Shown here one piece after another: positions 9,356-29,068 of a stretch of DNA of 64,000 nucleotides. Below the pieces are notes generated by a model, which did not search any database, had not been told where the DNA came from, and worked only from the letters and a program-made list of their open reading frames with translations. This DNA is from Alphaproteobacteria bacterium. GTDB lineage: Bacteria; Pseudomonadota; Alphaproteobacteria; G965222575. Position numbers and translations under genes: made by a program. The stretch spans positions 320,001 to 384,000 of the forward strand of contig OZ244958.1 of assembly GCA_965222575.1 (NCBI GenBank), in the 5' to 3' direction. Numbering within the stretch: the first letter of the stretch is position 1; each line of letters begins with the position of its first letter.

Positions 9356-11764
9356 TTAAGGAAGTAGTCCTTTGAACTGTAGAATAAGGGAGGTCATATC
9401 ATCAAAGGCAGGTGTTTTATCTGTAAACTTATCCAATGCATTTTGAAGGGTATTTAAGAGTGTTTGGCAAGAGCTTGCAGTTTGGTTCTTGAGGAACTCT
9501 TCCAAGCGTTCTTCTCCAAACTGGTGATTTTGACTATCCATTGCTTCTGTTATGCCGTCAGTGAAGAGGAATAATCTGCTTTCTTTTGGTAATATCACTG
9601 TTTTTTCTTGATAAGAAAAATCTGTAATCACTCCAACAGCTGTGCCTTGCGTACCGGGAAGTGGTGTGATGTGGTTAGGGGTGAGAAGATAGGGACAACA
9701 ATGTCCTGCGTTAACATAGGTCATTTTCCCGGTACGCAGGTCCAAAATCCCATAGAAAATTGTAATAAAAAAGTGTTTTTCATTGACATCACAAATCATC
9801 TTATTCACATGCGTCATGCATTGTCCGCAGGAAGGTTTATAGCATGCAATAGAACGCAAAAGAGTCCGCACAACAGCCATAAAAAGAGCTGCTACAATTC
9901 CTTTCCCGGAAACATCGCCAATCACAATAGCGAAGCGGTTTTTATCAATGAAGAAATAGTCATAAAAGTCTCCCCCTAAATCTTTAGCGGGAATCATAGA
10001 GGTTGCAATGGCTAAATTGTCTGCTTCAGGCGGTGTTTTAGGCAAAATAGAAGCTTGTACTTCTCTAGCATATAAAAGTTCTTCTTGTAAATTCAGAAAG
10101 TCTTGTTCGGCTTTAGAAGCTTTTTTGAGGGCTTTGAGTATTTTAGACAAGCGTTGATTTTGTTTCAGAATGTATCCAAAAGCCTTTTGCAAAGTTTCCA
10201 TCATGGATAAAAACTGGCTTTGCCCTCCTTTGGCTACGGAGGAGAATTCCCAGTCATAGGATTCTTTAAGGTGGTCTTGCATTTTGACGACATTTCTTTT
10301 AATAAGTTCTATTTGTTGCTTGTTTTGCTTTTCATAGCCATCGCACCGTTTTTTTAGTCCTGATAATCGGTAACTTAGGGTGTGAATATAGCGTTCAATT
10401 TTTCGTGCGGGCTTAAAGGGAATAGGGGAAGGTTCTTGTGCTTGTAGAACTTTTTTCAGGGAAGCTCGAATATGCTCCATGCCTCTTTTCCAGAAGGATA
10501 AGAGTGTTCTCATTTCAAAAAAGACGAGAAGAAGGAAAAGACTAAAGACCAGAATTTTTGAAACAATGCCCCAAAAGAGACTACCAATAGGAAAAACAGA
10601 AACAACATATAGCCCTAGAGGCCTGTGTTCTTTTTGAGGAATCACAGAGGAGTCCATTCTATCAAATAGAGAGGTATTGTTGGCTGGTGAAGACAAGTGA
10701 TTAAGTTCTTGAATGAAAAAAAAGGCCCCCGCGCGGTATTGCATAGAAAGCGACTGCTTTGGAGGTTTTAACTGCTGATAGTCCGGTAAGGAAAAGGTTG
10801 AAGAAATAAGGGAGGTCTGAAAAGTCCCTAGCCCGTCTATAATCACAAGGGGGGTGTAAATGTCTTCCTGTAGTTGATGCAGTAGCGTACTGAGGGCAAT
10901 GGCTAAGCCTTTTCCGGGAGTTTTTTCTATAAAAATCCAAAGAGCGGGTTTGCCATTAGGTAACACTTCTTTCACAAAGAAGCGTCCTCCTCCAAAGGGA
11001 ATGAGGACGCTATTTTCTTTAAGCGTCAACGGGATGAGGGCTGTGCGCAAAAGGCTATGGGTATCGTGCTGATGAGAAGACCCTTCTAAAAAAGCAAAGG
11101 CTTGATGAATGGTAAAGAGGACAAGTTTCCTGTCTGCTAAGGACAAGCTCTTCAGATACTGATTATGATGAGGCATCGTAGAGGTGATGAGCCAGCCAAA
11201 AAACATCAGAAAAATCAAAAAGAGAAGGAGCTGTTTTCCATACCACTCTCGTTTTCTATAGTGAGAGAAAGGCGGCCATATTTTGGCTAATTTGTTGAGG
11301 CTGTAGATGAGTTTATCCACGCGCATTCTGTTTACGGCATCGGGTTGACTGGAGCGTATGGCGTTAGCGTCTTCCTGACAAGCCTTATGGGTCAGATGCA
11401 ATTGATTAATTTGTTGTTGTAGAGACTTGCCTAAGCCAAATCCAGACTCTTCCCTGAACCCATGCTCCAAACGCACACCACTATTCAAACTTTTTTGCAC
11501 TCCTGCTAAAGGGAGAAAAAACCATCTCCTCACGAAAAAATAGACCGCACAGCCCGCTATGCCACTGCCCCCTAACAGCACGAGTATAGTCTTTCTCCCA
11601 CCACCACCACCTTCCTCTAAAAAGGCAGGAAATGATGGGACAAGCAGAGGTACCCCATACAAAACTGCCCACCCCAACAACAGACTCCCACAAACCCCCA
11701 AAAATACTAGCAACAGGTAAAGTCGGCTATAAGCCAATATGGAATGACGGGGGAAAAATGTCAT
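9356..11764 (-). CDS. Membrane-anchored PP2C/SpoIIE-family Ser phosphatase (RsbU/BtrU-like)
   Basis: C-terminal PAKDLGGDFYD, IGDVSGKG..AALFM, YVNAGH, LFTDGITEA, DDMT; several N-terminal TM segments. Confidence 0.9.
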   Translation of the reverse strand: MTFFPRHSILAYSRLYLLLVFLGVCGSLLLGWAVLYGVPLLVPSFPAFLEEGGGGGRKTILVLLGGSGIAGCAVYFFVRRWFFLPLAGVQKSLNSGVRLEHGFREESGFGLGKSLQQQINQLHLTHKACQEDANAIRSSQPDAVNRMRVDKLIYSLNKLAKIWPPFSHYRKREWYGKQLLLFLIFLMFFGWLITSTMPHHNQYLKSLSLADRKLVLFTIHQAFAFLEGSSHQHDTHSLLRTALIPLTLKENSVLIPFGGGRFFVKEVLPNGKPALWIFIEKTPGKGLAIALSTLLHQLQEDIYTPLVIIDGLGTFQTSLISSTFSLPDYQQLKPPKQSLSMQYRAGAFFFIQELNHLSSPANNTSLFDRMDSSVIPQKEHRPLGLYVVSVFPIGSLFWGIVSKILVFSLFLLLVFFEMRTLLSFWKRGMEHIRASLKKVLQAQEPSPIPFKPARKIERYIHTLSYRLSGLKKRCDGYEKQNKQQIELIKRNVVKMQDHLKESYDWEFSSVAKGGQSQFLSMMETLQKAFGYILKQNQRLSKILKALKKASKAEQDFLNLQEELLYAREVQASILPKTPPEADNLAIATSMIPAKDLGGDFYDYFFIDKNRFAIVIGDVSGKGIVAALFMAVVRTLLRSIACYKPSCGQCMTHVNKMICDVNEKHFFITIFYGILDLRTGKMTYVNAGHCCPYLLTPNHITPLPGTQGTAVGVITDFSYQEKTVILPKESRLFLFTDGITEAMDSQNHQFGEERLEEFLKNQTASSCQTLLNTLQNALDKFTDKTPAFDDMTSLILQFKGLLP

Positions 11765-12456
11765 GAATCTCCATAATTTTTTTCAATTTTCTTCAGGGAA
11801 TGACGAACAGTTCGTATCGCTTGTTTGGACTCCTTTAACTCCTCCATAAATCTTCCGGTACAGGAGAGTAAAAGTCCTTCTTTGATTGCACCCTTTTTGC
11901 CGCTTATCTTAGCAGCGACAGAAACGATATGCCGATGAATCGGAGTCGTCACAAGAAAGAGAAAAAGACTTAAAAAAAGACCTCCCACACCACCAGCCAC
12001 TCCCCACCATATCCCTATGATTTTCCACCTTTTCCAAAGATAATCCCAAAAAGAAAGAGGAGCAGTCAGTAAAACAAGAGAAAATTCTTCCTCAGGGTCC
12101 AAAGCTTGACTGATGATATGAAGGGAAGAATGCACGAACCTCTCCCTGTTGAAGTGATGACCTGTATGGAGCGGCGGGATTGATTGTAAAACAGTCCCTT
12201 GAGCGTTTATGACCAAAACAGCACGAAAAAACGGAACAGAAACAAGGGTTTGTTGAGCTGATGGTGAAAGAAAAAGCCTGTCCTCTAAGGAAAGCACCTC
12301 CTCCCAATCCACTGTAGCACACGCTTGCTCATAAGCCCTCTGGTACCCCTGATTTAGGTGATGATACTGAAGATAAAGCGAGACGATAATCATGCCTGCT
12401 AACAAAAGCCACAAGAAGCCGCACCAAAACCCTATGCAAAAACGCCGAAACCTCAT
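11761..12456 (-). CDS. Hypothetical membrane protein with two TM segments, coupled to the phosphatase gene
   Basis: Two hydrophobic segments flank a soluble loop; the stop overlaps the start of 9356..11764. Confidence 0.6.
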   Translation of the reverse strand: MRFRRFCIGFWCGFLWLLLAGMIIVSLYLQYHHLNQGYQRAYEQACATVDWEEVLSLEDRLFLSPSAQQTLVSVPFFRAVLVINAQGTVLQSIPPLHTGHHFNRERFVHSSLHIISQALDPEEEFSLVLLTAPLSFWDYLWKRWKIIGIWWGVAGGVGGLFLSLFLFLVTTPIHRHIVSVAAKISGKKGAIKEGLLLSCTGRFMEELKESKQAIRTVRHSLKKIEKNYGDS

Positions 12457-12638
12457 GACCTCACCACCTTTTAGCCCGTAAATGTCTTGCGTAAGACACC
12501 TCTTTATCAAAGAAGATTTTCTTTAAGAAAGGATTGTGATACGGCTCTTGGATTTTTGTTTATGGGCAGGTTTTACTGATTCTTAAAGCCTTGTTGTCAT
12601 ACTAGCACTCTCTCTTCTTAACAGATAAAAAAGGCATC

Positions 12639-13010
12639 ATGACATCCTCAGCACCCTCAAAAACGTTAGGAGAATTAGCCTTAATTGCTAGTTCTCTTGG
12701 TTGGAATCAGCAGGCTAATACAATTATAGAAGGATTAGAGATTGTATCAGAAGGCGTTTATCCTTTAATTGTAAAATCTGTGCATAAGCTTAATAGCGGT
12801 CAAGTGCAAGACGCTATTGACTTGCTTCAGAATCAGGCCTTAAAGCAAGATAGCGGCAATGTAGACGTGTTAGCCATTTTAGCATTAGCGTTCAAATTAA
12901 ATGGCTATGAGAAAAAAAGTCAGGAGATTGCAGAACAAATTCTTGCACAAGAAGAGAATGGTGACACCCAAGCGGGACAATTTGCTTCTGCTCTTTTGAA
13001 GGGCGATTAA
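12639..13010 (+). CDS. T3SS TPR-like small protein (YscG/EscG/SsaH-like needle chaperone)
   Basis: Short helical TPR-like protein (ELALIASSLG...A..I..GL) heading the sct operon, with an RBS. Confidence 0.55.
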   Translation: MTSSAPSKTLGELALIASSLGWNQQANTIIEGLEIVSEGVYPLIVKSVHKLNSGQVQDAIDLLQNQALKQDSGNVDVLAILALAFKLNGYEKKSQEIAEQILAQEENGDTQAGQFASALLKGD

Positions 13011-13037
13011 CGAAGAGGAAAAGAGGAGAAGAGTCTG

Positions 13038-13484
13038 GTGGATACACAAATCACGCAACAAATAAGCCAAAAGGTTCTTTCTGAAGCGCAACGCGAAGTA
13101 GCCAAGCAGCCACAAACTCAAGATGTAGAAACCTTCAAGCAAGCCATGCAAGAGGGGGGGGGGCAACAACAACAGACACAACAAACCTCAACAGTAGAAG
13201 GTACCCAGAGAGTTCAAGAAAAAGGGGAAATACAGCCGACAGAAGGCGTCAAAAATTCCGGAGAAAAAATTCTGGATAATCTCAGCAATATGAACAAATC
13301 TTTTAAGGAGAGCCTACAGAAAATTCATAACATTTTAGACAAAGATGGCATGCAAGTGATTTCTACGCGGGATATGATGAAAGTTCAAATGGAGCTTTAT
13401 ACCATGCAATTCAAACAAGAAATGACGAGCAAAATTGCAACAAAAAGCACGCAAAATCTTGATTCTCTACTTAAGAATCAGTAA
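13038..13484 (+). CDS. sctI: T3SS inner rod protein SctI (YscI/HrpB)
   Basis: DVETFKQAM, GEKILDNL and a C-terminal ..KIATKSTQNLDSLLKNQ typical of inner-rod subunits. Confidence 0.8.
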   Translation: MDTQITQQISQKVLSEAQREVAKQPQTQDVETFKQAMQEGGGQQQQTQQTSTVEGTQRVQEKGEIQPTEGVKNSGEKILDNLSNMNKSFKESLQKIHNILDKDGMQVISTRDMMKVQMELYTMQFKQEMTSKIATKSTQNLDSLLKNQ

Positions 13485-14080
13485 TGGAAGAATGGATTTA
13501 TATCTCTCCAGATACGAAAATTCTCAAGGCAGAAACCTATCAGGAATATATCACCTCAAAATCTATCCTAGACGAGGCGCACCAACAAGCGGACGAGATT
13601 TTATCGCAACAAAAACTTGCCTATGATATCGGCTACATACGCGGCGTAGAAAGGGCTAAGAGACAAGAAGCGCGTCAGTCCTTAAAGCGTATGTTAGAAG
13701 CACTTTGGACAGAAGCTTCTTTTTTCCATAACCAAAAAGCCCCCGCTACCGCTATGGCTAGTAAAGCGCTGGAAAAATTACTAGGCTCTATTGAAAACTC
13801 CGAGCGAATAGAACAAGAAGTCCAAGCCTCTCTTGAAGAAGTTCAAGGACGCTCCTTTTTAGAGCTACAGGTACACCAAAGCGTCCTTGAAAAGACCCAA
13901 GAAAAACTCCAAGCTCTCAATAAAACCCTTTGTGTTCCGTCATTTTTTTCAGTCACTGCTCATCACGGCATCGCTTATCCTAGCCGTTGTGCTATTCATT
14001 GTCGCTTTGCTTGCATAGAAGGGCTGCTAAGAGAGATGCTCAAGGACTTACAAACTCTTGTCAAGGAGCTTGGCTCTTAA
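13484..14080 (+). CDS. sctL: T3SS stator SctL (YscL/FliH-like), divergent
   Basis: KILKAETY...[13 protein letters not shown]...GY..G pattern; lies immediately before the ATPase. Confidence 0.7.
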
Positions 14081-14081
14081 A

Positions 14082-15404
14082 ATGCTCTCTAACCTGAACT
14101 ATATCAACGATGTGTTCAAGAGCGTCATTAGCGAGCTATCGCTGTTGCAGATTAGAGGCCGTGTTACGCAAGTCATTGGGACGATTATCAAAGCTTTTGT
14201 TCCTTCTGCTAAAGTGGGGGAGTTGTGTCTTCTTCAGAACAGAGACGAGGATTTTTCTATTACCGCTGAAGTGGTGGGGTTTGCGAAGGGTGCTGCGTTA
14301 TTGACGCCTATTGGGGAGATGCGAGGGGTTTCTACTGCAACGGAAGTGATTCCTACAGGCAAAACGCATCTCGTAGGAGTAGGCCCGGGCCTCTTAGGAC
14401 GCGTCCTAGATGGAATAGGCAATCCTTATGATAATAAAGGGGATTTGAAAGCAGAGACTTATTATCCTGTTTATCAAGAAGCTCCTGACCCTATGATACG
14501 GCGCATTATCAAAGACCCTTTGCCCTTAGGCCTACGGGTTATCGATGGGTTTTTGACCTTAGGAGAAGGACAGAGAATGGGGATTTTCGCGGCGGCTGGC
14601 GGGGGGAAAAGCACGCTTTTATCCTCTATTGTGAAAGGGGCTCAGGTGGATATTACGGTCGTGGCGTTAATCGGAGAAAGAGGAAGGGAAGTGAGAGAAT
14701 TTATAGAACATGACCTTGGAGAAGAGGGAATGAAAAAATCTGTTATTGTCTGTGCTACTTCAGATAAATCCTCTATGGAAAGAGCAAAAGCCGCTTATGT
14801 TGCAACGGCTATCAGTGAGTATTTCAGAGACCAAGGGGAGAAAGTTTTGTTGTTGATGGATTCTGTGACGCGCTTTGCTAGGGCGCAAAGAGAAATCGGA
14901 TTAGCCGCAGGAGAACCTCCCACTAGAAGAGGATTCCCCCCTTCTGTCTTTGCCATGTTGCCTAAGCTCATGGAAAGGGCTGGCAATAACGATAAAGGCT
15001 CTATCTCTGCTCTTTATACCATTCTGGTAGAAGGAGACGATATGACGGAACCGATTGCTGATGAAACGCGTTCTATTTTGGACGGCCATATTATTCTCTC
15101 ACGCAAACTTGCCTCTTCTAACCATTATCCCGCTATTGATGTGCTCGCTAGCACAAGCCGTACCATGAACAATGTGGTGGCTGATGAACAAAAGGCAAAC
15201 ACAGGAAAAATCAGAGAATTACTGGCAAAATACACCCAAGTGGAGCTGCTGCTGAAAATTGGCGAGTACAAATCCGGCGCGGACCAAGTCACAGACGAAG
15301 CCGTTGAGAAAATTGACGCTATTAACGCTTTCCTCAAACAAGGACTAGGGGAAATCTCCTCTTTCCCAGAAACGCTCAAACGCCTCACAGAACTAACAAA
15401 ATGA
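14082..15404 (+). CDS. sctN: T3SS ATPase SctN (YscN family)
   Basis: [65 protein letters not shown]. Confidence 0.97.
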
Positions 15405-15877
15405 CAGAAAATGTCTATAGCTCTTTATTGAGCCTTAAGAAATTTCAGGAAAAATCTAAAGAGGATAAAGTCCGCCGACAAAGAGATATCTTCAAACAAG
15501 AAGACATCATGGTAGGCAAACGTAGACATGAACTGAAAACCTATAACCTAGAACGCAAACAAAAAGAAAACAGCATGTATGACAATATTATGGAAAAATG
15601 TATCCCTCTTGACCAACTACAAGGAGTCAATCTCTCCATTACCTCCTTAAGAGAAGAGGAAAAACAGTACGAAAACCGCCTAACAGACTCTCTCTCTAAT
15701 AAGAAGAAAGCGGAAGTGGATTTAACGGTTGCTAAAAAAGAACACCATCTTGCTATCAAAAAAACACAAAAATTTGAGGAACTGAATACAGAAAACGACA
15801 CGCTCATCAAAAAAGAAAACCAACACAAAGAAGAAATGGAAATGGAAGAATTTTCTCCATCCTCCCCCTTATTGTAA
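15401..15877 (+). CDS. sctO: T3SS stalk SctO (YscO)
   Basis: Charged coiled coil ending KFEEL...EEMEMEEF; ATGA overlap with sctN. Confidence 0.8.
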
Positions 15878-15879
15878 CT

Positions 15880-17136
15880 ATGACTATCAAAACAGACTCT
15901 CCCCCTCCCTCCCCTTCCAGTGGGCACACCACGCCTGCGGGACCTAGACAAAATACCGCTAGTGTCCGCGACCAACAAGAAACTTTTCTTAAGTTTATGG
16001 AGAAAAAAGCCCCTCAAGAAAAAGGCACGCAACAGAAGCCTTTTGAACAGACTCATAAAAATACAGAACAATCTGCCTTCTCACTCTTTGGAAAAAAATC
16101 CTCCCACACACCCCAAAGACAAGACCTCCCACAAGCACCACTCTCAAAGTCCCCCCAAAATCTTCAACAAGCGGAAGTCTCAAAAGCTCCCCAAGACCTT
16201 CAACAAGCATCACTCTCAAAAGCTCCCCAATCTTCAACCTTCAACAAGCCTCTGTCTCAAAAGCTCCTCAAAATCTTCAACAAGCCTCTGTTCTCAAAAG
16301 CTCCCCAAAATCTTCAACAAGCTTCTGTTTCAAAAGCTCCCCAAGACCTTCAACAAGCCTCTGTCTCAAAAGCTCCCCAAAATCTTCAACAAGCCTCTGT
16401 TTCAAAAGCTCCCCAAGACCTTCAACAAGCCTCTGTCTCAAAAGCTCCCCAAAATCTTCAACAAGCTTCTGTTTCAAAAGCTCCCCAAGACCTTCAACAA
16501 GTGCCTGTTTCAAAAGCTCCTCAAGACCTTCAACAAGCCTCTGTTTCAAAAGCTCCTCAAAATCTTCAACAGACTCCTACTTCAACAGCCTCTTTGGAGG
16601 CACGTCAAGAGCAGCCGTCGCCTCTCAAGGCGTCGCCCCTCAGGGCTTCAAAGGCGGAAACCCTTTCTGCTACAGAGCGTGCTGTTGCCGATAAGGTGAT
16701 TCCAGAAAAAGCGGCTCTTGTGGGCATGGAGGCAACTGCTTTCGCAGAAAAAATAGCCATAGCGGACAAAAATGTGCCTGCTCCCTCTAGAATTGCGGAA
16801 ATCGCCAATAAAGTTGCCAAGCAAATACTGGTACAGGATGCCGCTTTTTCAAGTCAAAAACAGGTGACAATCAAAATTAGCGATAGTCTTCTTCCTCAAA
16901 CAGAGATTGTTGTTCAAAAAGTTGGAGGGACATTACAAATCGATATTCAAACGCTCTCCGATGCTGCTGGGAAACTTTTGTCTTCTCAACTCCCCTCTTT
17001 ACAACAACAGCTTCACAATCGCTTACAGGGGGATGTAGCGGTATCGCTGAATTATACCCCCGAAGACCAACAAACGGATCAGGATGGGCGCTCCAGACAG
17101 GAATATGTTGCACCTGAAGAGGAAAGTGAGCACTGA
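15880..17136 (+). CDS. sctP: T3SS needle-length ruler SctP (YscP) with internal tandem repeats
   Basis: C-terminal T3S4/FliK-like domain (QILV...VTIKISDSLLPQTEIVV...LQI; GRSRQEY); sits between sctO and sctQ. Confidence 0.82.
   Translation: MTIKTDSPPPSPSSGHTTPAGPRQNTASVRDQQETFLKFMEKKAPQEKGTQQKPFEQTHKNTEQSAFSLFGKKSSHTPQRQDLPQAPLSKSPQNLQQAEVSKAPQDLQQASLSKAPQSSTFNKPLSQKLLKIFNKPLFSKAPQNLQQASVSKAPQDLQQASVSKAPQNLQQASVSKAPQDLQQASVSKAPQNLQQASVSKAPQDLQQVPVSKAPQDLQQASVSKAPQNLQQTPTSTASLEARQEQPSPLKASPLRASKAETLSATERAVADKVIPEKAALVGMEATAFAEKIAIADKNVPAPSRIAEIANKVAKQILVQDAAFSSQKQVTIKISDSLLPQTEIVVQKVGGTLQIDIQTLSDAAGKLLSSQLPSLQQQLHNRLQGDVAVSLNYTPEDQQTDQDGRSRQEYVAPEEESEH
16122..16572 (+). repeat. About 12 tandem 36-bp units (QQASVSKAPQ[N/D]L) in sctP
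   Basis: Repeated caagc(c/t)tctgt(c/t)tcaaaagctccccaa(aat/gac)cttcaa. Confidence 0.95.
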
Positions 17137-17556
17137 AGATATATCAAAACTTATACAGCACAGGAAGTCATGCTCAACAATCACAGTGTGTCAAGGGAAA
17201 ACAAAGCGTCTCTCTTTTGCCGTTGGCGGTATTCCTTATACACGTCTTTTTTTAGAGGACATACCAGATGAAAATGAGTACTGAAATACTATCGGACACT
17301 TATACAGCACAGGAAGTCATACTCAACAATATCGTGTGTCAAGGGAAAACAGAGCGTCTCTCTTTTGCCGTTGGCGGTATTCCTTATACCCTGCTTTTAG
17401 AGGACATACCAGATGAAAATGAGTACTGAAATACTATCGGACACTTATACAGCACAGGAAGTCATACTCAACAATATCGTGTGTCAAGGGAAAACAGAGC
17501 GTCTCTCTTTTGCCGTTGGCGGTATTCCTTATACCCTGCTTTTAGAGGGCATACCA
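17120..17556 (+). repeat. Triplicated ~145-bp sctP/sctQ junction
   Basis: atgaaaatgagtactgaaatac... occurs at 17268 and 17413 (145 bp apart), with a degenerate first copy from about 17120. Confidence 0.92.
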
Positions 17557-18402
17557 AAAGAGAAACCCCAAGAGAGGGGATGTTGGTATTGCCTTCAAAC
17601 ACCAGCTTGGAAGCTGAATTGTTTTATCCCTGACCTTTTGTGTCGCTGTTTCATACAGGATACAGCCCAGATGAAAGAGGTAGATTTATTTCTAGCCGAT
17701 GAAGAGGTGGTGGATGTGTTGCTCAGGTGTGCTCTTGAGCCTCTTTTTTCCAAGATTACGCCTGTGTCTTTCGGGCGTGGTCGAGAAGAGAGTGAACAGG
17801 GTATTGATGTTGTTTGTACCCTCCAGCGTAAAAACCAACCTTTTGCTTGTTCTGTGCTTTTAGAGCTCCCTAGCAGTGCTCTTACCTTCTTCAAAGACCT
17901 CTCTCTTCAGACACAGGAGAAGGACATTGAAGATTTGTGTGTGTTTGAAACATTTTTGCTTCTTGGAGAGTGCACTTTAACGCCAGAAGAGTTAGGCATA
18001 CTTGAGAAAGGAGATATTGTCTTTTTAGACTCCCCTGTAAGAGGGCTACAAAAGGGAGAAAAATGCATCTCATGCGGGGAAGCGGACTACCTTGTCTTGG
18101 ATAAAAAGGGGAGCATACAACGTCTGTCAAAACCCAAAGAAGAAAATGCTTCTGTCATCAAGGCAACAGTGAGGGTGCAGATACCATTTCTCTCTTTATC
18201 CTTAAAGCAGCTAAAGGATGTGTTAGAACAAAAGCTCTTCTTACATAGCACCCCTAAAGAGCCGCAAAATGTCAAAGCTTATGTACAAGACAAGCTGTTA
18301 GCCGAGGGCATTTATTGCTCCATTATAGGAAAAGAGGCTGTACAGCTGACTAAGGTTTGTCTTGCGGCAGAAGCTCAAGCAACGAAAGAGAGCCTAAGCT
18401 AG
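17413..18402 (+). CDS. sctQ: T3SS cytoplasmic ring SctQ (YscQ), divergent
   Basis: SpoA-like LGECTLTPEELGILEKGDIV and a second degenerate SpoA-like C-terminus; follows sctP. Confidence 0.7.
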   Translation: MKMSTEILSDTYTAQEVILNNIVCQGKTERLSFAVGGIPYTLLLEGIPKEKPQERGCWYCLQTPAWKLNCFIPDLLCRCFIQDTAQMKEVDLFLADEEVVDVLLRCALEPLFSKITPVSFGRGREESEQGIDVVCTLQRKNQPFACSVLLELPSSALTFFKDLSLQTQEKDIEDLCVFETFLLLGECTLTPEELGILEKGDIVFLDSPVRGLQKGEKCISCGEADYLVLDKKGSIQRLSKPKEENASVIKATVRVQIPFLSLSLKQLKDVLEQKLFLHSTPKEPQNVKAYVQDKLLAEGIYCSIIGKEAVQLTKVCLAAEAQATKESLS

Positions 18403-19208
18403 TGGAGAGTAATGCTCTTAACCTTGAAGAGTTGATAGGCGCGTATGAAAAAGGCTTTTTATCTGTTATTCTGTGCTTTCCGCGTCTACACGCTACTTTC
18501 GCTCTTTTGCCTTTTATGAGCAAGCAGGTGATTCCGGGCATGGCGCGAAATGGGATGGTCTTATCCCTAGGGATACCCTTATATGCCCCTATGTACTCAG
18601 CATTAAACCTAGACATGATAACCCCTATGTTTGTGTTCGCTCTTATTCTCAAGGAGGTATTTGTAGGCTTGTGCATGGGCTTTTTGTTTGCCATTTCCAT
18701 TTGGGCTGTAGAAGCGGCAGGGTTTTTTATTGATAACCAACGGGGGGCGTCCATGGCGAGCTCCATGAACCCGCTCTCAGGGAGTACAACATCTCCTTTA
18801 GGCATTTTATTTATTCAAGTGCTAGCAGCGTTTATCTTTGTATCCGGGATTTTCTTATTGTTTTTGCAAGCGATTTATGAAAGCTATCATGTCTGGCCGG
18901 TTTTATCCTTCGTGCCTAACTTGAATCAACCCTTAGAGGGATTTTTTCTCTCTCAGTTAGACAAACTCATGTCCCTAGCTGTCATTTTAGCGGGACCATT
19001 AATTTTATCTATGTTCTTAAGTGAGATGGGGCTAGCGTTCGTCAATAGGTTTGCACCTCAATTGCAGGTGTTTTTCCTTGCTATGCCTATTAAAAGCGGG
19101 GTCGGCATTTTTATTCTCATCATCTACATGCCTTTCCTTGTGCAGTATGTCATCGACAATTTCACGGACTTTGAAGGGATTTTCTCAGATTTCCTCAAGC
19201 TATTATAA
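18402..19208 (+). CDS. sctT: T3SS export apparatus SctT
   Basis: KEVFVG, AGFFIDNQRGA, RFAPQLQVFFLAMPIKS; GTG start at 18402. Confidence 0.95.
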   Translation: MESNALNLEELIGAYEKGFLSVILCFPRLHATFALLPFMSKQVIPGMARNGMVLSLGIPLYAPMYSALNLDMITPMFVFALILKEVFVGLCMGFLFAISIWAVEAAGFFIDNQRGASMASSMNPLSGSTTSPLGILFIQVLAAFIFVSGIFLLFLQAIYESYHVWPVLSFVPNLNQPLEGFFLSQLDKLMSLAVILAGPLILSMFLSEMGLAFVNRFAPQLQVFFLAMPIKSGVGIFILIIYMPFLVQYVIDNFTDFEGIFSDFLKLL

Positions 19209-19218
19209 CCCGTTCCTC

Positions 19219-20286
19219 ATGAGTGAAAAAACAGAACCCCCTACGGATAAGAAGATAAGAGACTCCCGAAAAAAGGGGCAAGTCGCAAACAGCAAAGAGT
19301 TAGTGTCGGCTTTCATGCTCACTGTTATACTGATGTATTTTTGGGTTACCTCGGACTTTTTGCTCACTCATTTTACAAAACTCATTTCACTGCCCGCCGA
19401 TTTTTACGAGCTCCCCTTTCGTGATGCGCTACCGGGCGTCTTCAAAGCCTTGTTTAAGCATGTTTTTCTTATCCTCCTCCCTGTCATAGGCCTGACTCTC
19501 ATAGGCGGTATTTTTATCAATTTCGTACAAGTAGGCCCTCTTCTAGCTTTTCAAGGGCTCAAACCGGATTTGAAGAAACTCAATCCTGCCCAAGGTATGA
19601 AAAAAATCTTTGCCATGAAAAATCTCGTGGAGTTTATCAAATCCTCTGTGAAAATCTGCTTTTTAGGAACATTGATGTTCTTGCTGGTGAAAAATGCCAT
19701 TGCAGACCTCGTGATAGCCCCAGCCTTTGGCATTGGCAGCATTATAGACATAGGGGCTGACCAATTCAAAAAGGTCATTATCTACACGCTTTTAGCCTTC
19801 GCGCTGGTGGCGGCGTTTGATGTGTTCTATCAACGCATGCGCTATACAAAAGATTTAATGATGTCCAAAGATGAAATCAAGCGTGAGTACAAAGAACAAG
19901 AGGGCGACCCCCTTATCAAGAGTAAACGCAAACAATTCCACAGAGAAATGATAGAGGGAGGAGTAGAAAAAAAGGTGGCCTCTTCCTCTGCTGTGGTGAC
20001 TAATCCTACGCATTGCGCTGTTGCCATTACCTATAAAGCAGAAAAAACGCCTCTACCAGTGATTGTCGCTAAGGCAGAAGGAACAAGGGCTCAAAGAATC
20101 ATTGAAATTGCGAAAAAAGCTTCTGTGCCTATCATGCAAAATATTCCCCTTGCAAGAGGTCTTTATGAAGCAGCAGAGTGTGATCACTATATTCCTTCCG
20201 ATTTCATTGAGCCGGTGGCGGAAGTGTTGCAATGGGTTCAACAATTAAAATCCCAAACACCCTCCTCTGAGAACAGCACGCCGTAG
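19219..20286 (+). CDS. sctU: T3SS export switch SctU
   Basis: MSEKTEPPT.KK.RDSRKKGQV, KREYKEQEGDP and the NPTH autocleavage motif. Confidence 0.96.
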   Translation: MSEKTEPPTDKKIRDSRKKGQVANSKELVSAFMLTVILMYFWVTSDFLLTHFTKLISLPADFYELPFRDALPGVFKALFKHVFLILLPVIGLTLIGGIFINFVQVGPLLAFQGLKPDLKKLNPAQGMKKIFAMKNLVEFIKSSVKICFLGTLMFLLVKNAIADLVIAPAFGIGSIIDIGADQFKKVIIYTLLAFALVAAFDVFYQRMRYTKDLMMSKDEIKREYKEQEGDPLIKSKRKQFHREMIEGGVEKKVASSSAVVTNPTHCAVAITYKAEKTPLPVIVAKAEGTRAQRIIEIAKKASVPIMQNIPLARGLYEAAECDHYIPSDFIEPVAEVLQWVQQLKSQTPSSENSTP

Positions 20287-20365
20287 CATACAAGAAACAC
20301 AATTTTAAGCATTTAGAGATAGCCTATTGCCACGTAAAGGAAGTAAATCTATAGTGTAACTAGGT

Positions 20366-21763
20366 ATGCCTGCCATAAAACAGAATCCTGCTACTTTATT
20401 GGCGAGTACAGCGGTTGCTCAAAAGAATAATCAAAAAGAGGAGCAATTACTTGGCCGATCTGTTACTCTTTCGGCAAGTCGACAACAATTAAAAGAGAAT
20501 CCTGCTGCTTCGTTGGCGCATGCAGCGGTTAATCAAAAGAATAATGAAAAGCAATTACTTGACCGATCTGTTAGTCTTTCGGCAAGGCACCAACCCTCTA
20601 ATCAAGTCAACCCCTCGAAGAATCAAAGCCTAAATTCCTTAAAACCCTTGGGGCAAGATGTATTATTAGGGGAGAAAACCCCCTCATTTCTGCAGGGGAT
20701 TAATCAACATCTGTCTTTTAACGAAGTGGTGGCAACCTTTGTTGGGCCAGAGGTAATTGTTGACAATATGGAAGACCTCATCAAGACCTTGGAGGGGGCG
20801 AACAATGACTCTGTGACACATTGTACTCATCAACTGCTCTCTTCTTTGGAAAATGAACATGAGCAGTTGGAGCAACAAGCATGGAGTCTTGTTAGTGAAG
20901 AGGTTGCTGAAAAAGTACAACCAAGGACAGAACCCTTAAAAAGGGAAGAGGGCTTTGAGAAAAGCGATGTGTTGAAATTGTGGTCAGCGACATCAACGAC
21001 ATCAAATGCAGAGAAGCAATTTTACGACATGAAAGAAGAACTTGAGCAATTAAATTCCCATCTTCAACAAGAGGAGGAACATATATCATTTGCCCCTGCT
21101 CCTGTTAAAGCTTTACAGAGAAGTCAGGAGTATTTATCGCAAATACAACAAGATTCTAAGTCAAGAATCAAGTCTTTCAAAAAGCCGTTGCGACAACTAT
21201 CTCATCGTTTAAGTACTGAAATCCAAGACCGAAAAAGAAGTATAGAAAACGATCTCCCGTTATTAGAAAAGGAAGCAAGAAAAGCAAAGGAAGGAAAGAA
21301 AAGAAAAGCACCACAGGTGCGGCAATTGTCTGATTTATTAGAAAAGGTCAAGCAAAATAATATGAAAATTGTTTATGTGAAAGCGTTGGCTCAAGAAGGA
21401 AGCAAAACAGCTTCGAAAATAGCGAATCATTTAAGAGAAAACTTAGGCTCTATGCCTAAACCTACGCCACCTATGCCTACACCTGCGCCACCTATGCCTA
21501 AAGCTACGCCACCTACGCCTACACCTGCGCCACCTACGCCTACACCTGCGCCACCTATGCCTAAAGCTAAGCCACCTACGCCTACACCTGCGCCACCTAC
21601 GCCTACACCTGCGCCACCTACGCCTACACCTGCGCCACCTATGCCTACACCTGCGCCACCTATGCCTAAAGCTAAGCCACCTACGCCACCTACGCCTACA
21701 CCTACGCCACCTACGCCTAAAGCTAAGCCACCTACGCCTAGTAGATGGAGCATGGATATTTAG
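20366..21763 (+). CDS. Hypothetical protein with coiled coil and Pro-rich C-terminus; candidate T3SS effector
   Basis: 465-aa ORF right after sctU; duplicated N-terminal ~38-aa unit; PTPTPAP repeats. Confidence 0.7.
   Translation: MPAIKQNPATLLASTAVAQKNNQKEEQLLGRSVTLSASRQQLKENPAASLAHAAVNQKNNEKQLLDRSVSLSARHQPSNQVNPSKNQSLNSLKPLGQDVLLGEKTPSFLQGINQHLSFNEVVATFVGPEVIVDNMEDLIKTLEGANNDSVTHCTHQLLSSLENEHEQLEQQAWSLVSEEVAEKVQPRTEPLKREEGFEKSDVLKLWSATSTTSNAEKQFYDMKEELEQLNSHLQQEEEHISFAPAPVKALQRSQEYLSQIQQDSKSRIKSFKKPLRQLSHRLSTEIQDRKRSIENDLPLLEKEARKAKEGKKRKAPQVRQLSDLLEKVKQNNMKIVYVKALAQEGSKTASKIANHLRENLGSMPKPTPPMPTPAPPMPKATPPTPTPAPPTPTPAPPMPKAKPPTPTPAPPTPTPAPPTPTPAPPMPTPAPPMPKAKPPTPPTPTPTPPTPKAKPPTPSRWSMDI
21452..21740 (+). 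repeat. About 13 imperfect 21-bp units encoding Pro-rich heptads
   Basis: Variants of cctacgcctacacctgcgcca. Confidence 0.93.
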
Positions 21764-21776
21764 AGCTTTTGGGGAA

Positions 21777-21860
21777 GGCTGGAGGTCTCTGGCTGGAAGT
21801 CTCTGGCTGGAGGTCTCTGGCTGGAGGTCTCTGGCTGGAAGTCTCTGGCTGGAAGTCTCT
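21777..21860. repeat. 6 x 14-bp intergenic tandem repeat
   Basis: ggctgga(g/a)gtctct x6, contiguous. Confidence 0.95.
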
Positions 21861-21913
21861 TACTTCCTAAAAGAGATGTCCTTCTCGTAAAAAATCAGGA
21901 GGGCATGACAAAA

Positions 21914-22053
21914 GCCCCTAGAAAATTGTTGCTGCCCCTACAAAATTGTTGCTGCCCCTAGAAAATTGTTGCTGCCCCTACAAAATTGTTGCTGCCCCTA
22001 CAAAATTGTTGCTGCCCCTACAAAATTGTTGCTGCCCCTACAAAATTGTTGCT
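21914..22053. repeat. 7 x 20-bp intergenic tandem repeat
   Basis: gccccta(c/g)aaaattgttgct x7, contiguous, ending about 30 bp before radC. Confidence 0.95.
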
Positions 22054-22085
22054 GATGTTGTAGCAACCCTTTATACTGCCCTCAT

Positions 22086-22709
22086 ATGAAAACGTCTGAT
22101 TTCCATAGGCTGATGACTTTAGAGAAGGTTTTGTCAGTGGTACTACAAAAAGCTGGGTTTCGTATACCCGCTGAGTTGTCTTACTATAGCTTAACAGAAC
22201 TGCTTCACCTCACCCACACACAGCAGCTCCCTGAAAATGTCTTGCCCGAAGAAGCAGTCCAATTCCTTGCAGGCTTTTTCCACTTATCTGCTAGAATGCA
22301 AGACAATACCATCAAAAATCTTCATATTACCGCTTCAAAAGAAAAGCTCCTACAGCATTTTTATGTCCGTTTCTCTTGCCTCCACTTAGAAATCCTGTAC
22401 GCTTTTATTCTCAGTGCTGAAAAAGGGATACACACCTCTCTTCTGCTGGAAGCCGGCACCAAGAAAAAAATCAATCTCATCCCTAAAGACCTCCTCAATA
22501 AAATTCTCCCGCACTTTAGCCACTCCTCCATGTCTGTTCTGCTACTACACAATCATCCAAGTGGCATCGCCGACCCTTCTAAAGAAGATATTCTTTTCAC
22601 CAAACACATACAGAACTCTTTAATTTCGTTGAATATTCCTCTCTATGATCATTGGATTATTGGTCATAATACCTATTTTAGTTTCAAAAACCAGGGGCTT
22701 ATCCTCTGA
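22086..22709 (+). CDS. radC: RadC-like JAB/MPN domain protein
   Basis: HNHPSG..PS.ED...T...DHWIIG...YFSF. Confidence 0.88.
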   Translation: MKTSDFHRLMTLEKVLSVVLQKAGFRIPAELSYYSLTELLHLTHTQQLPENVLPEEAVQFLAGFFHLSARMQDNTIKNLHITASKEKLLQHFYVRFSCLHLEILYAFILSAEKGIHTSLLLEAGTKKKINLIPKDLLNKILPHFSHSSMSVLLLHNHPSGIADPSKEDILFTKHIQNSLISLNIPLYDHWIIGHNTYFSFKNQGLIL

Positions 22710-28297: not shown

Positions 28298-29068
28298 ATG
28301 TCTACATTAGTAGGAATTTTCATAAGTTATCAAGGGCTATTCCCAGCAGCTCTGCTTCATGAAGCAGTAGACAAGGGAGATATCAGGGAGGTTCAAACAC
28401 TTTTAGAACGTGGTGTTGATATTGATGCCAAGAATGAGGAGGGCTGGGCAGCTCTCCATTTAGTGGTGTTGGGGGAGGATGTGAAGATGGCGCAGTTGTT
28501 GATAGAGCAGGGAGCTTCTCTTGAGATAGCCGCTACTAGTCATGGACAAACACCACTACATATGGCTGTGCTAAGAGGGCGTGAGGAGATGATGCGCTTG
28601 CTGATAGAAGCTGGCGTAGAGGTGGACAAGGGGGATGCCACAGGGTGTACTCCGTTGTATTATGGAGTGGATCAACCCCTAGGGGAAGGGTGGACTTCCA
28701 TCAGTGATTTGGTCACTTTACTGCAGGCAGGGGCTTCTATCAATGCGCAAAATCTAGGCGGTAACACCCCGCTTCACGGAGCAACCTATCAGGGGGATTT
28801 AGAAGTTGTTGCCTTTCTGATAAAAAATGGAGCCTCTGTGAGCATCAGGAACAAGAAAGGAGAGACTCCTCTCTATAACGCTGTGTATCAAGGAGATATC
28901 AACATGGTGAAAGCACTCATCAAGGCGGGGGCTAGGATTGATGTGAAGAACAAAGCAGGAATCACCCCCCTTGTGTTAGCACAAAAGCTACTGGCAAAAC
29001 GAACAATTGATTGGGAGAAAAAGCATTACCAAGACATGATACCGTTTTTAGAAGGCAACAAAGAATAG
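28298..29068 (+). CDS. Ankyrin-repeat protein (about 6 repeats)
   Basis: GWAALH, GQTPLH, GCTPLY, GNTPLH, GETPLY and GITPL repeats. Confidence 0.95.
   Translation: MSTLVGIFISYQGLFPAALLHEAVDKGDIREVQTLLERGVDIDAKNEEGWAALHLVVLGEDVKMAQLLIEQGASLEIAATSHGQTPLHMAVLRGREEMMRLLIEAGVEVDKGDATGCTPLYYGVDQPLGEGWTSISDLVTLLQAGASINAQNLGGNTPLHGATYQGDLEVVAFLIKNGASVSIRNKKGETPLYNAVYQGDINMVKALIKAGARIDVKNKAGITPLVLAQKLLAKRTIDWEKKHYQDMIPFLEGNKE

Follow-up and report, generated by a model that had tools for sequence, protein, structure and literature searches.

Within the type III secretion systems (T3SSs), YscX/YscY, SycN, TyeA, YscE/YscG, YscK and YscO are specific to the Ysc family. The Rickettsiales, which are cell-associated Alphaproteobacteria, are known mainly for type IV systems. 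Type VI systems are among those given for the Holosporales in one review (PMC11909080). In the Bordetella locus as presented in PMC7498569, sctJ and sctK lie between sctI and sctL, and sctR and sctS lie between sctQ and sctT. The four genes are likewise placed on the Yersinia plasmid. Here, we analyzed a window of 64,000 nucleotides (bases 320001-384000 of the single contig OZ244958.1) from an alphaproteobacterial genome, which carries the T3SS gene cluster sctI-L-N-O-P-Q-T-U. From its sequence, the cluster very probably forms part of a non-flagellar Ysc-family injectisome that is complete, probably works and shows Bordetella Bsc-type features. Positions without a prefix are those of the window, and positions marked "genome" are those of the whole contig.

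Nine plus-strand open reading frames (ORFs) lie within 12639-20286, and all of them are T3SS genes. In the following list, SctL_w and SctQ_w are the window copies of proteins that also have copies, SctL_c and SctQ_c, in the sctJ-sctS locus (locus C, below), and homologue counts refer to a set of 81 related T3SS loci.

12639-13010, plus strand: first gene of the cluster, a weakly assigned YscG-like tetratricopeptide repeat chaperone (PF09477 7.9e-4, 19.9 bits, cut-off of 32.1 not reached; TIGR02508 1.9e-5); similar ORFs in 17 of 81 related loci, best 1.3e-10
13038-13484, plus strand: SctI, inner rod (PF17001 T3SS_basalb_I 2.2e-12, 47.7 bits, above cut-off); matches in 29 of 81 related loci
13484-14080, plus strand: SctL_w, stator paralogue that evolves faster than SctL_c, 198 aa (PF06188 HrpE/YscL 3.8e-5; NF005392 2.2e-16 and TIGR02499 4.9e-13, NCBIfam cut-offs not reached)
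14058-15404, plus strand: SctN, ATPase (ATP-synt_ab 7.4e-89; T3SS_ATPase_C 1.6e-22; NF005391 772.6 bits, cut-off 657; TIGR02546 648.8, cut-off 604.75)
15401-15877, plus strand: SctO, central stalk (PF07321 YscO 2.4e-21); matches in 62 of 81 related loci
15880-17136, plus strand: SctP, needle-length ruler (PF09483 HpaP 3.5e-9 at residues 306-389)
17413-18402, plus strand: SctQ_w, full-length but extremely diverged C-ring/sorting-platform protein, 329 aa (assigned by hhalign; Pfam FliMN_C 1.1e-4, 22.5 bits, cut-off of 23.8 not reached)
18357-19208, plus strand: SctT, export apparatus, true start uncertain inside the ORF (TIGR01401 238.5 bits, cut-off 163; PF01311 Bac_export_1 3e-54)
19219-20286, plus strand: SctU, export switch, with ATG 19219 as the likely start of an ORF open from 19051 (TIGR01404 412.3 bits, cut-off 358; PF01312 Bac_export_2 1.7e-111 from ORF residue 59)

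The gene order, which a preliminary description had read from the sequence, was thus borne out by Pfam and NCBIfam models at exact ORF limits. The SctN ORF opens at TTG 14058, and the ATG at 14082, right behind the sctL stop codon, is the likelier start. Both YscN-type ATPase motifs quoted in the preliminary description are present in SctN, namely Walker A at residue 175 and EPPTRRG at 286, together with LLLMDS at 264. SctU carries the NPTH autocleavage motif at ORF residue 318. SctP contains about 12 tandem 12-residue repeats, encoded by a 36-bp unit present 11.8 times at 16142-16571. A promoter and terminator scan of 11500-22200 returned 15 promoter-like sites versus 12.5 expected.

The genes sctJ, sctK, sctR and sctS are not in the window cluster, and there is no space in it for remnants of them because sctI and sctL abut and sctQ and sctT overlap. 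The window cluster supplies about a third of the apparatus, and the other parts were found in five further loci.

genome 240836-246725, minus strand: locus B, with SctW, SycN, YscX, a 120-aa ORF in the YscY position, SctV, SctD and SctF; between lgt and sdhC
genome 1036792-1040772: locus C, with SctJ, SctK, SctL_c, SctQ_c, SctR and SctS; between sppA and accA/secA
genome 402168-404903: locus D, with a CesT-type (YscB-like) chaperone, SctC, a kinase of RsbW type and a STAS protein; groES-groEL lies about 650 bp upstream
genome 849047-852669: locus F, with two LcrH/SycD chaperones, a YopB-like protein, a 297-aa protein and a CesT-type chaperone
genome 625468-625764: a lone YscE-like gene (YscE 4.3e-7)

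In locus B, SctW combines HrpJ and TyeA domains in one 388-aa protein (TyeA 6.6e-6), SctV reached 769 bits, YscX 8.7e-16 and SycN 1.3e-9, and the needle protein SctF reached 56.7 bits with PF09392. SctK of locus C matched the YscK family at 9.4e-5 (22.4 bits, cut-off 22). The best match of SctC, which carries a SPI-1 N0 domain, was YscC at 314 bits. In locus F, the two class II chaperones scored 126.1 and 114.4 bits with TIGR02552 (cut-off 104.8), the YopB-like protein scored 61.7 bits with the SseC/YopB family, the 297-aa protein stands in the YopD position, and a helix-turn-helix regulator gene follows at genome 852776-853177. The six loci are flanked by sdhCDAB/lgt, accA/secA/sppA, groES-groEL, rluD-like/tRNA, uvrA and smpB/folD. 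The export gate (SctR, SctS, SctT, SctU and SctV) and SctN, SctL and SctO are all encoded by intact ORFs; the secretin SctC, the needle SctF and the rings SctD and SctJ occur without a flagellar rod or hook; and a translocon with class II chaperones is present, its second translocator being assigned by position. When the T3SS proteins were compared with every genome ORF by phmmer, one copy each of SctN, SctV, SctU, SctT, SctR, SctS, SctJ and SctD was found, the other matches of SctN being F1 ATPase-like with at most 30% identity. The genome has one FHIPEP, one FliP and one YscJ/FliF, with FHIPEP and FliP both in injectisome context. Parts from the six loci would come together as a single machine for the injection of effectors into eukaryotic host cells, with the window part supplying the rod, a stator paralogue, the ATPase, the stalk, the ruler, the full-length SctQ, the gate subunits SctT and SctU and a putative YscG-like needle chaperone.

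The family of the system was determined mainly from SctN. Its best NCBIfam model was NF005391, which scored above every FliI model, and the FliI models remained below their own cut-offs (589 versus 629.8, and lower). For SctN, SctT and SctU alike, the injectisome equivalogs outscored the FliI, FliR and FlhB models. The best 80 of 557 confirmed SctN relatives in species-representative genomes showed 72-65% identity and came from Burkholderiales (Bordetella, Achromobacter, Comamonadaceae), Desulfovibrionaceae, Aeromonas, Photorhabdus, Vibrio and Pseudomonas; the top identities (70-72%) were to Burkholderiales including Bordetella and Achromobacter, and the best of any among these 80 was 72%. In a comparison with plasmid sequences, identity descended from YscN (66.8%) and AscN (66.4%) through a Mesorhizobium system (60%), Bradyrhizobium (57%) and Ralstonia HrcN (55.5%) to the Sinorhizobium/Rhizobium T3SS ATPases (50-55%; the name Rhc is our own label for them), FliI (about 44%) and SpaL (43%). 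Two SctN trees, a quick one of 93 rows and a careful one of 55 rows, both placed SctN in a clade with Yersinia YscN, the Bordetella group and the Desulfovibrionaceae group, with FliI as the outgroup (100/100) and Ralstonia HrcN and Sinorhizobium Rhc branching below (96/94). A long Shigella/Pantoea pair also falls in this Ysc-like clade, with weak support (81/21). The 50-55% identity to the Rhc sequences versus 66-72% to Ysc-type ones, together with the Sinorhizobium sequence lying outside the clade, places SctN outside the Rhc group. Among the accessory genes, YscX, SycN, the TyeA domain, YscE, YscK and YscO are present, and YscG is below cut-off. The SctN equivalog score, the identity ladder, the trees and the accessory genes support a non-flagellar injectisome of the Ysc family, in keeping with the preliminary description; a gatekeeper fused into one protein, the two class II chaperones, the sctL-sctN adjacency and the SpoIIE, kinase and STAS genes, all Bsc-like, are consistent with this family as well.

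SctL and SctQ had been described as strongly diverged. This is true of the window copies, but a better conserved SctL and a conserved SctQ C-terminal domain exist in locus C. SctL_w and SctL_c do not detect each other by phmmer, yet each detects SctL of related loci: SctL_w matches that of 56 of 81 loci (best 54.9 bits), and SctL_c, with a best score of 102 bits, outscores SctL_w in 76 of 77 SctL-like ORFs of these loci. In a tree with both paralogues, SctL_w has the longest branch (2.63, versus 1.58 for SctL_c); the tree has long branches, is unresolved and does not separate a duplication within the lineage from two origins. For SctQ, a hidden Markov model was built from 51 SctQ ORFs of related loci, with E-values calculated for a set of 33 proteins. 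Residues 132-218 of SctQ_w aligned to positions 103-191 of this profile at 20.5 bits, and SctQ_c aligned to positions 236-316 only, i.e., the last SpoA domain, at 61 bits. When hhalign was run against a 28-sequence SctQ alignment of 323 columns, residues 90-319 of SctQ_w covered columns 60-317 (probability 95%, E 3.8e-8) and residues 43-122 of SctQ_c covered columns 236-315 (97.8%, E 7.7e-13). Profile comparison thus identifies SctQ_w as a full-length, extremely diverged SctQ, which keeps its own diverged SpoA2 region, and SctQ_c as a stand-alone C-terminal SpoA domain. By phmmer, SctQ_w had no relative among 1.84 billion representatives except its own 53-aa repeat peptide. SctQ_c (genome 1037722-1038723; L007 8723-9724) continues behind the SpoA domain with a proline-rich repeat tail of about 210 residues that is absent from all 28 aligned SctQ proteins; a proline-rich unit of roughly 13-20 residues (GVTPPPTxGKPAAP...) occurs about ten times in the protein. 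Several T3SS-linked genes of the genome contain tandem arrays of this proline-rich kind. A complex prediction for SctQ_w residues 85-329 with SctQ_c residues 35-125 scored 0.00, with the controls not folded.

The start region of sctQ is itself repeated.

17118-17556, plus strand: tandem triplication of the sctQ start region, 145 bp present 3.0 times with 93% matches

Each 145-bp unit comprises the ribosome-binding and start region of sctQ and its first 48 codons. As the unit length is not divisible by 3, both upstream copies run out of frame into stop codons, giving short ORFs of 66 and 53 aa.

The distribution of genes between the window and locus C suggests how this layout arose. Of the full order I, J, K, L, N, O, P, Q, R, S, T, U, genes I, L, N, O, P, Q, T and U are in the window, and J, K, L, the 3' part of Q, R and S are in locus C; a 5'-truncated Q directly behind L is the expected remnant of a deletion from N into Q. 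Because the two loci are complementary and the truncated Q follows L, duplication of the operon with complementary loss is the favored explanation. The layout could then be a frozen end state, reached when the sctI-to-sctU operon was duplicated and the copies lost complementary sets of genes, with the cell now dependent on both halves, a sorting platform with two distinct stators and a separate SctQ-C bearing the long proline-rich tail, and a dispersal independent of the similar one in Chlamydia. We propose this combined scenario tentatively, at somewhat less than even odds.

Candidate regulators stand beside the T3SS genes at two places. One is upstream of the window cluster.

9356-11764, minus strand: SpoIIE/PP2C serine phosphatase, 802 aa, BtrU/RsbU-like (Pfam SpoIIE 1.8e-46 at residues 608-797)
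11761-12510, minus strand: unknown 249-aa protein with two hydrophobic stretches (read by eye), its gene overlapping the phosphatase gene by 4 bases

The phosphatase gene is divergent from the window T3SS operon, and homologues of it lie inside T3SS loci in 6 of 81 related loci (best 6.3e-54); STAS homologues occur in 20 of 81. The 249-aa protein had no Pfam or NCBIfam match and no homologue in the 81 related loci; it is possibly a sensor partner of the phosphatase. At the second place, genome 404113-404903 directly behind sctC, a kinase (HATPase_c_2, 3.6e-15) is encoded with the STAS protein (1e-17), so that a SpoIIE phosphatase, a kinase and a STAS protein are all linked to T3SS genes. By analogy with BtrU/W/V as presented for Bordetella (PMC7498569), the PP2C phosphatase is probably a partner-switching regulator of the T3SS, and the phosphatase, kinase and STAS protein would control the machine as in Bordetella.

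The genome is a single contig of 1,215,846 bases, 97.6% complete with a contamination of 0.06 (CheckM-type estimates), in agreement with the symbiont-like character proposed earlier. LepA had no relative above 59% identity among 5.8 billion proteins, and among the 120 matches listed, every one named to class was from Alphaproteobacteria, as expected from the proposed alphaproteobacterial host; the named matches include Kiloniellales, Fodinicurvata, Algihabitans, Rhodovibrionaceae, Sneathiella and Minwuiales. RpoB is 40-57% identical to that of 30 class-mates. The 40 nearest compared genomes are all related at the level of the same class, from 40 different families, with none from the same order; one of them (G040) is unpublished. 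In the LepA tree, a same-class genome (G039) is sister to Algihabitans. LepA alone grouped this genome with 8 long-branch T3SS-bearing genomes (SH-aLRT 92); with LepA and RpoB together (1970 columns), that group dissolves and this genome is left without a placement, with a branch length of 2.1 changes per site, and the grouping was set aside as possible long-branch attraction. IalB and Alph_Pro_TM domains are present in the genome, and VirB4 and TssC were not found in it. The flagellar rod/hook domain (PF00460 Flg_bb_rod) was not found either, the control being positive in 4 flagellated genomes; with the FliI models below cut-off, no flagellar export apparatus was recognized. A search for the ATP/ADP translocase TLC gave no match in the genome, and its control also gave none. 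The bacterium is probably a cell-associated symbiont or parasite.

Several features of the chromosome are unusual. The recJ gene is split into overlapping ORFs in different frames, with the DHH domain at 59915-60544 and DHHA1 and RecJ_OB at 58836-59927, which is likely a frameshift or pseudogene. Two giant ORFs of 14,108 residues (genome 776981-819307) and 4,196 residues (genome 429861-442451) together occupy about 4.5% of the chromosome. A 614-aa ORF at L008 4592-6436 joins an N-terminal ribosomal protein S16 part to a C-terminal TrmD part, and may represent a fusion of the rpsP-rimM-trmD genes.

The cluster resembles its surroundings in composition. The GC content is 0.437 in the window cluster, 0.432 and 0.443 in its flanks, 0.457 in the genome and 0.437-0.460 across the T3SS loci. 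The GC content at third codon positions (GC3) of 11 T3SS genes is 0.358-0.496, all within about 1.7 standard deviations (SD) of the mean of 0.451 (SD 0.055; 485 ORFs of at least 300 aa). No SctN above 48% identity over the full length was found in the 40 nearest class-mates, whose five best SctN matches fall together with the FliI of Azospirillum in the tree. Of 400 class-mates sampled evenly, 11 had an SctN above the NF005391 cut-off (12 of 401 with this genome). The genomes of 10 of these 11 are 1.4-2.6 Mb in size, and their clusters are rearranged too (e.g., J-K-L-N-C, with R-S-T-U apart) and have one SctL each. In approximately unbiased (AU) tests, for which the groups were chosen after the tree was seen, a single clade of all alphaproteobacterial SctN sequences was rejected (p-AU 0.0018) and a group of this genome with the small-genome SctN sequences was not rejected (p-AU 0.16). 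Because of the AU test, the scarcity in the class and the match in GC and GC3, a horizontal origin followed by long residence is the best reading. The long residence suggested earlier agrees with the composition and with the dispersal of the genes among housekeeping genes. The horizontal acquisition suggested with it is plausible from these sequence comparisons, by which the system would have arrived in an ancient transfer.

The stretch was found in 3 runs from 2 studies. Contigs of 18 and 20 kb from two runs join the housekeeping flank to the cluster up to 16182, the start of the SctP repeats, which argues against a chimeric contig. The short-read contigs of the 3 runs break in the SctP array and again at the 145-bp repeats. 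In all three runs, a 154-bp contig at 17374-17527 was deeper than its neighbors (66.1 versus 35.5/40.5, 114.6 versus 57.8/60.4 and 14.9 versus 8.85/5.68). Among the runs there are at least about 10 variants in the apparatus genes, too few for a ratio of nonsynonymous to synonymous substitutions.

The same data bear on other explanations. The T3SS genes might be a recent island or foreign DNA from contamination or a chimeric contig, since the closest SctN sequences among the best 80 are betaproteobacterial and not alphaproteobacterial. However, the genes occupy six separate loci amid housekeeping genes, their GC and GC3 equal those of the genome, the best SctN identity among those 80 is only 72%, contamination is low and independent contigs of two runs bridge flank and cluster; we therefore consider this explanation very improbable. 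Reuse of a reduced flagellar export apparatus for secretion, reported for some insect and protist endosymbionts, would fit the preprint description of alphaproteobacterial endosymbionts with a reduced flagellar T3SS (bioRxiv 10.1101/719211), the FliI at 42-48% identity in the nearest class-mates and the presence of a CheA gene. This reading is already refuted by the higher scores of SctN, SctT and SctU with injectisome equivalogs than with FliI, FliR and FlhB, by the secretin, needle protein, YscX, SycN, gatekeeper and translocators, by the missing Flg_bb_rod domain and by the FliI outgroup position, and we give it practically no weight.

A complete injectisome is challenged more seriously by the view that a formerly complete island has left a decaying relic, its genes scattered and diverging in a genome that is shrinking, with no working machine. 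SctQ_w has no phmmer relative, SctL_w has the longest branch in its tree, the triplicated 5' end of sctQ yields two dead-end mini-ORFs, and the split recJ is a sign of ongoing genome decay. No needle tip protein of the LcrV or Bsp22 type and no LcrG was recognized among the ORFs scanned near T3SS loci, although no search was aimed at them. Other points also weigh against a complete Ysc-family machine: SctQ_w, SctK, SctL_w and SctP are diverged below curated cut-offs; the 120-aa ORF has no family match and is called YscY by position, as is the 297-aa second translocator; the SctN trees were built from sequences other than those of Chlamydiales, SPI-2, Hrp1 and Myxococcales, and SctN sits in a polytomy inside the Ysc-like clade and is not placed within the betaproteobacterial clade; and the machine is known here from genes alone. 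Against decay, the core genes C, D, F, I, J, K, L, N, O, P, Q, R, S, T, U, V and W are uninterrupted and of normal length in a 1.2-Mb genome, and the catalytic and autocleavage motifs are kept. There is one copy per apparatus gene apart from the SctL and SctQ paralogues, consistent with each being needed, and VirB4 and TssC, markers of two other injection systems, were not found. A relic thus appears unlikely, and a complete, probably working injectisome remains the reading that we prefer.

Behind the cluster, the window encodes many orphan proteins.

20366-21763, plus strand: unknown 465-aa protein with no family match and a C-terminal proline-rich repeat of the PTPAPP type

Its gene has 21-bp repeat units at 21450-21740, and short tandem arrays of 14-bp and 20-bp units lie in the spacer behind it (21777-22000). 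In runs X1 and X2, the stretch 20648-20855 exists in two versions with 19 differences over 208 bases, and a weak paralogue is encoded at genome 1206098-1207108. The protein could, speculatively, be a candidate secreted substrate. The region 22725-45115 contains large ORFs without a Pfam family (711, 582, 421, 340, 1564, 371, 407, 457 and 318 aa), an ankyrin-repeat protein (28298-29068) and a 1081-aa subtilase; between 30 and 36 kb, GC climbs to 0.50-0.54 and AT skew is strong. This region may be rich in effectors. Elsewhere in the genome, a second secretin of 746 aa is only distantly YscC-like (57 bits versus 314 for SctC) and occurs with three unknown membrane-type ORFs (193, 157 and 298 aa) in a region at genome 621014-625101 (L008 8015-12102). 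A single GspE/PilB-type ATPase is encoded at genome 277771-278916, with which the second secretin probably belongs, and the region of this secretin may represent a reduced type II or type IV pilus system. CheA is encoded at L009 13614-15746, without flagellar genes.

In a limited search, we found no description of a Ysc-type injectisome in a reduced alphaproteobacterial endosymbiont. The present system adds a complete Ysc-type injectisome, as predicted here, to a very small and very divergent alphaproteobacterial genome. A Ysc-type SctN in small alphaproteobacterial genomes is not unique to this one, and what is unusual is the dispersed layout with duplicated sorting-platform parts. Since eleven other sampled species carry this SctN type, reduced Alphaproteobacteria may repeatedly use T3SSs to interact with hosts, a strategy that would be under-described, and the split operon, the doubled SctL and the stand-alone SctQ C-terminal domain may serve as a natural experiment on how far the sorting platform tolerates duplication and dispersal.

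Among known systems, the Bordetella Bsc system shares the SctN identity of 70-72% (to Burkholderiales), sctL directly before sctN, two class II chaperones at the translocator genes, a phosphatase, kinase and STAS protein beside T3SS genes, and YscX-like and YscY-position genes before sctV. The gatekeeper is one protein with HrpJ and TyeA, as BopN is listed in PMC7498569. In contrast, bscI-bscU is given there as one block, whereas six loci are found here, with J-K and R-S elsewhere, two SctL genes, and SctQ as a full-length and a SpoA-only gene. A BtrS-like sigma factor and the Bsp22 tip were not seen here, although no search was aimed at either. The Yersinia Ysc-Yop system of pYVe227 resembles ours in YscN, in YscC as the best match of SctC, and in the accessory set of YopN/TyeA, SycN, YscX, the YscY position, LcrD, YscE/F/G and YscK/L/O/P. 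However, the pYV genes lie within about 25 kb in three operons and YopN and TyeA are separate genes there, and LcrV, LcrG, LcrR, YscW and VirF were not recognized here (no search being aimed at LcrV or LcrG).

The chlamydial T3SS lies in dispersed loci among housekeeping genes, one starting J-K-L, and is accompanied by an RsbU/RsbV/RsbW-type partner switch in a small-genome, obligately cell-associated bacterium. Our system is similar in its dispersed layout, its J-K-L-starting locus and its Rsb-type partner switch, but its SctN scored 326.7 bits (cut-off 604) on NF004578, which we take to be the chlamydial SctN model, versus 772.6 on NF005391. A small SpoA polypeptide next to a full-length or N-terminal SctQ is known from HrcQA/HrcQB of Pseudomonas syringae and from the internally translated SctQ-C of the Ysc and SPI-1 systems. 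A separate polypeptide with the SctQ C-terminal SpoA domain is found here as well, but its gene stands 700 kb from the full-length gene and adds a proline-rich tail.

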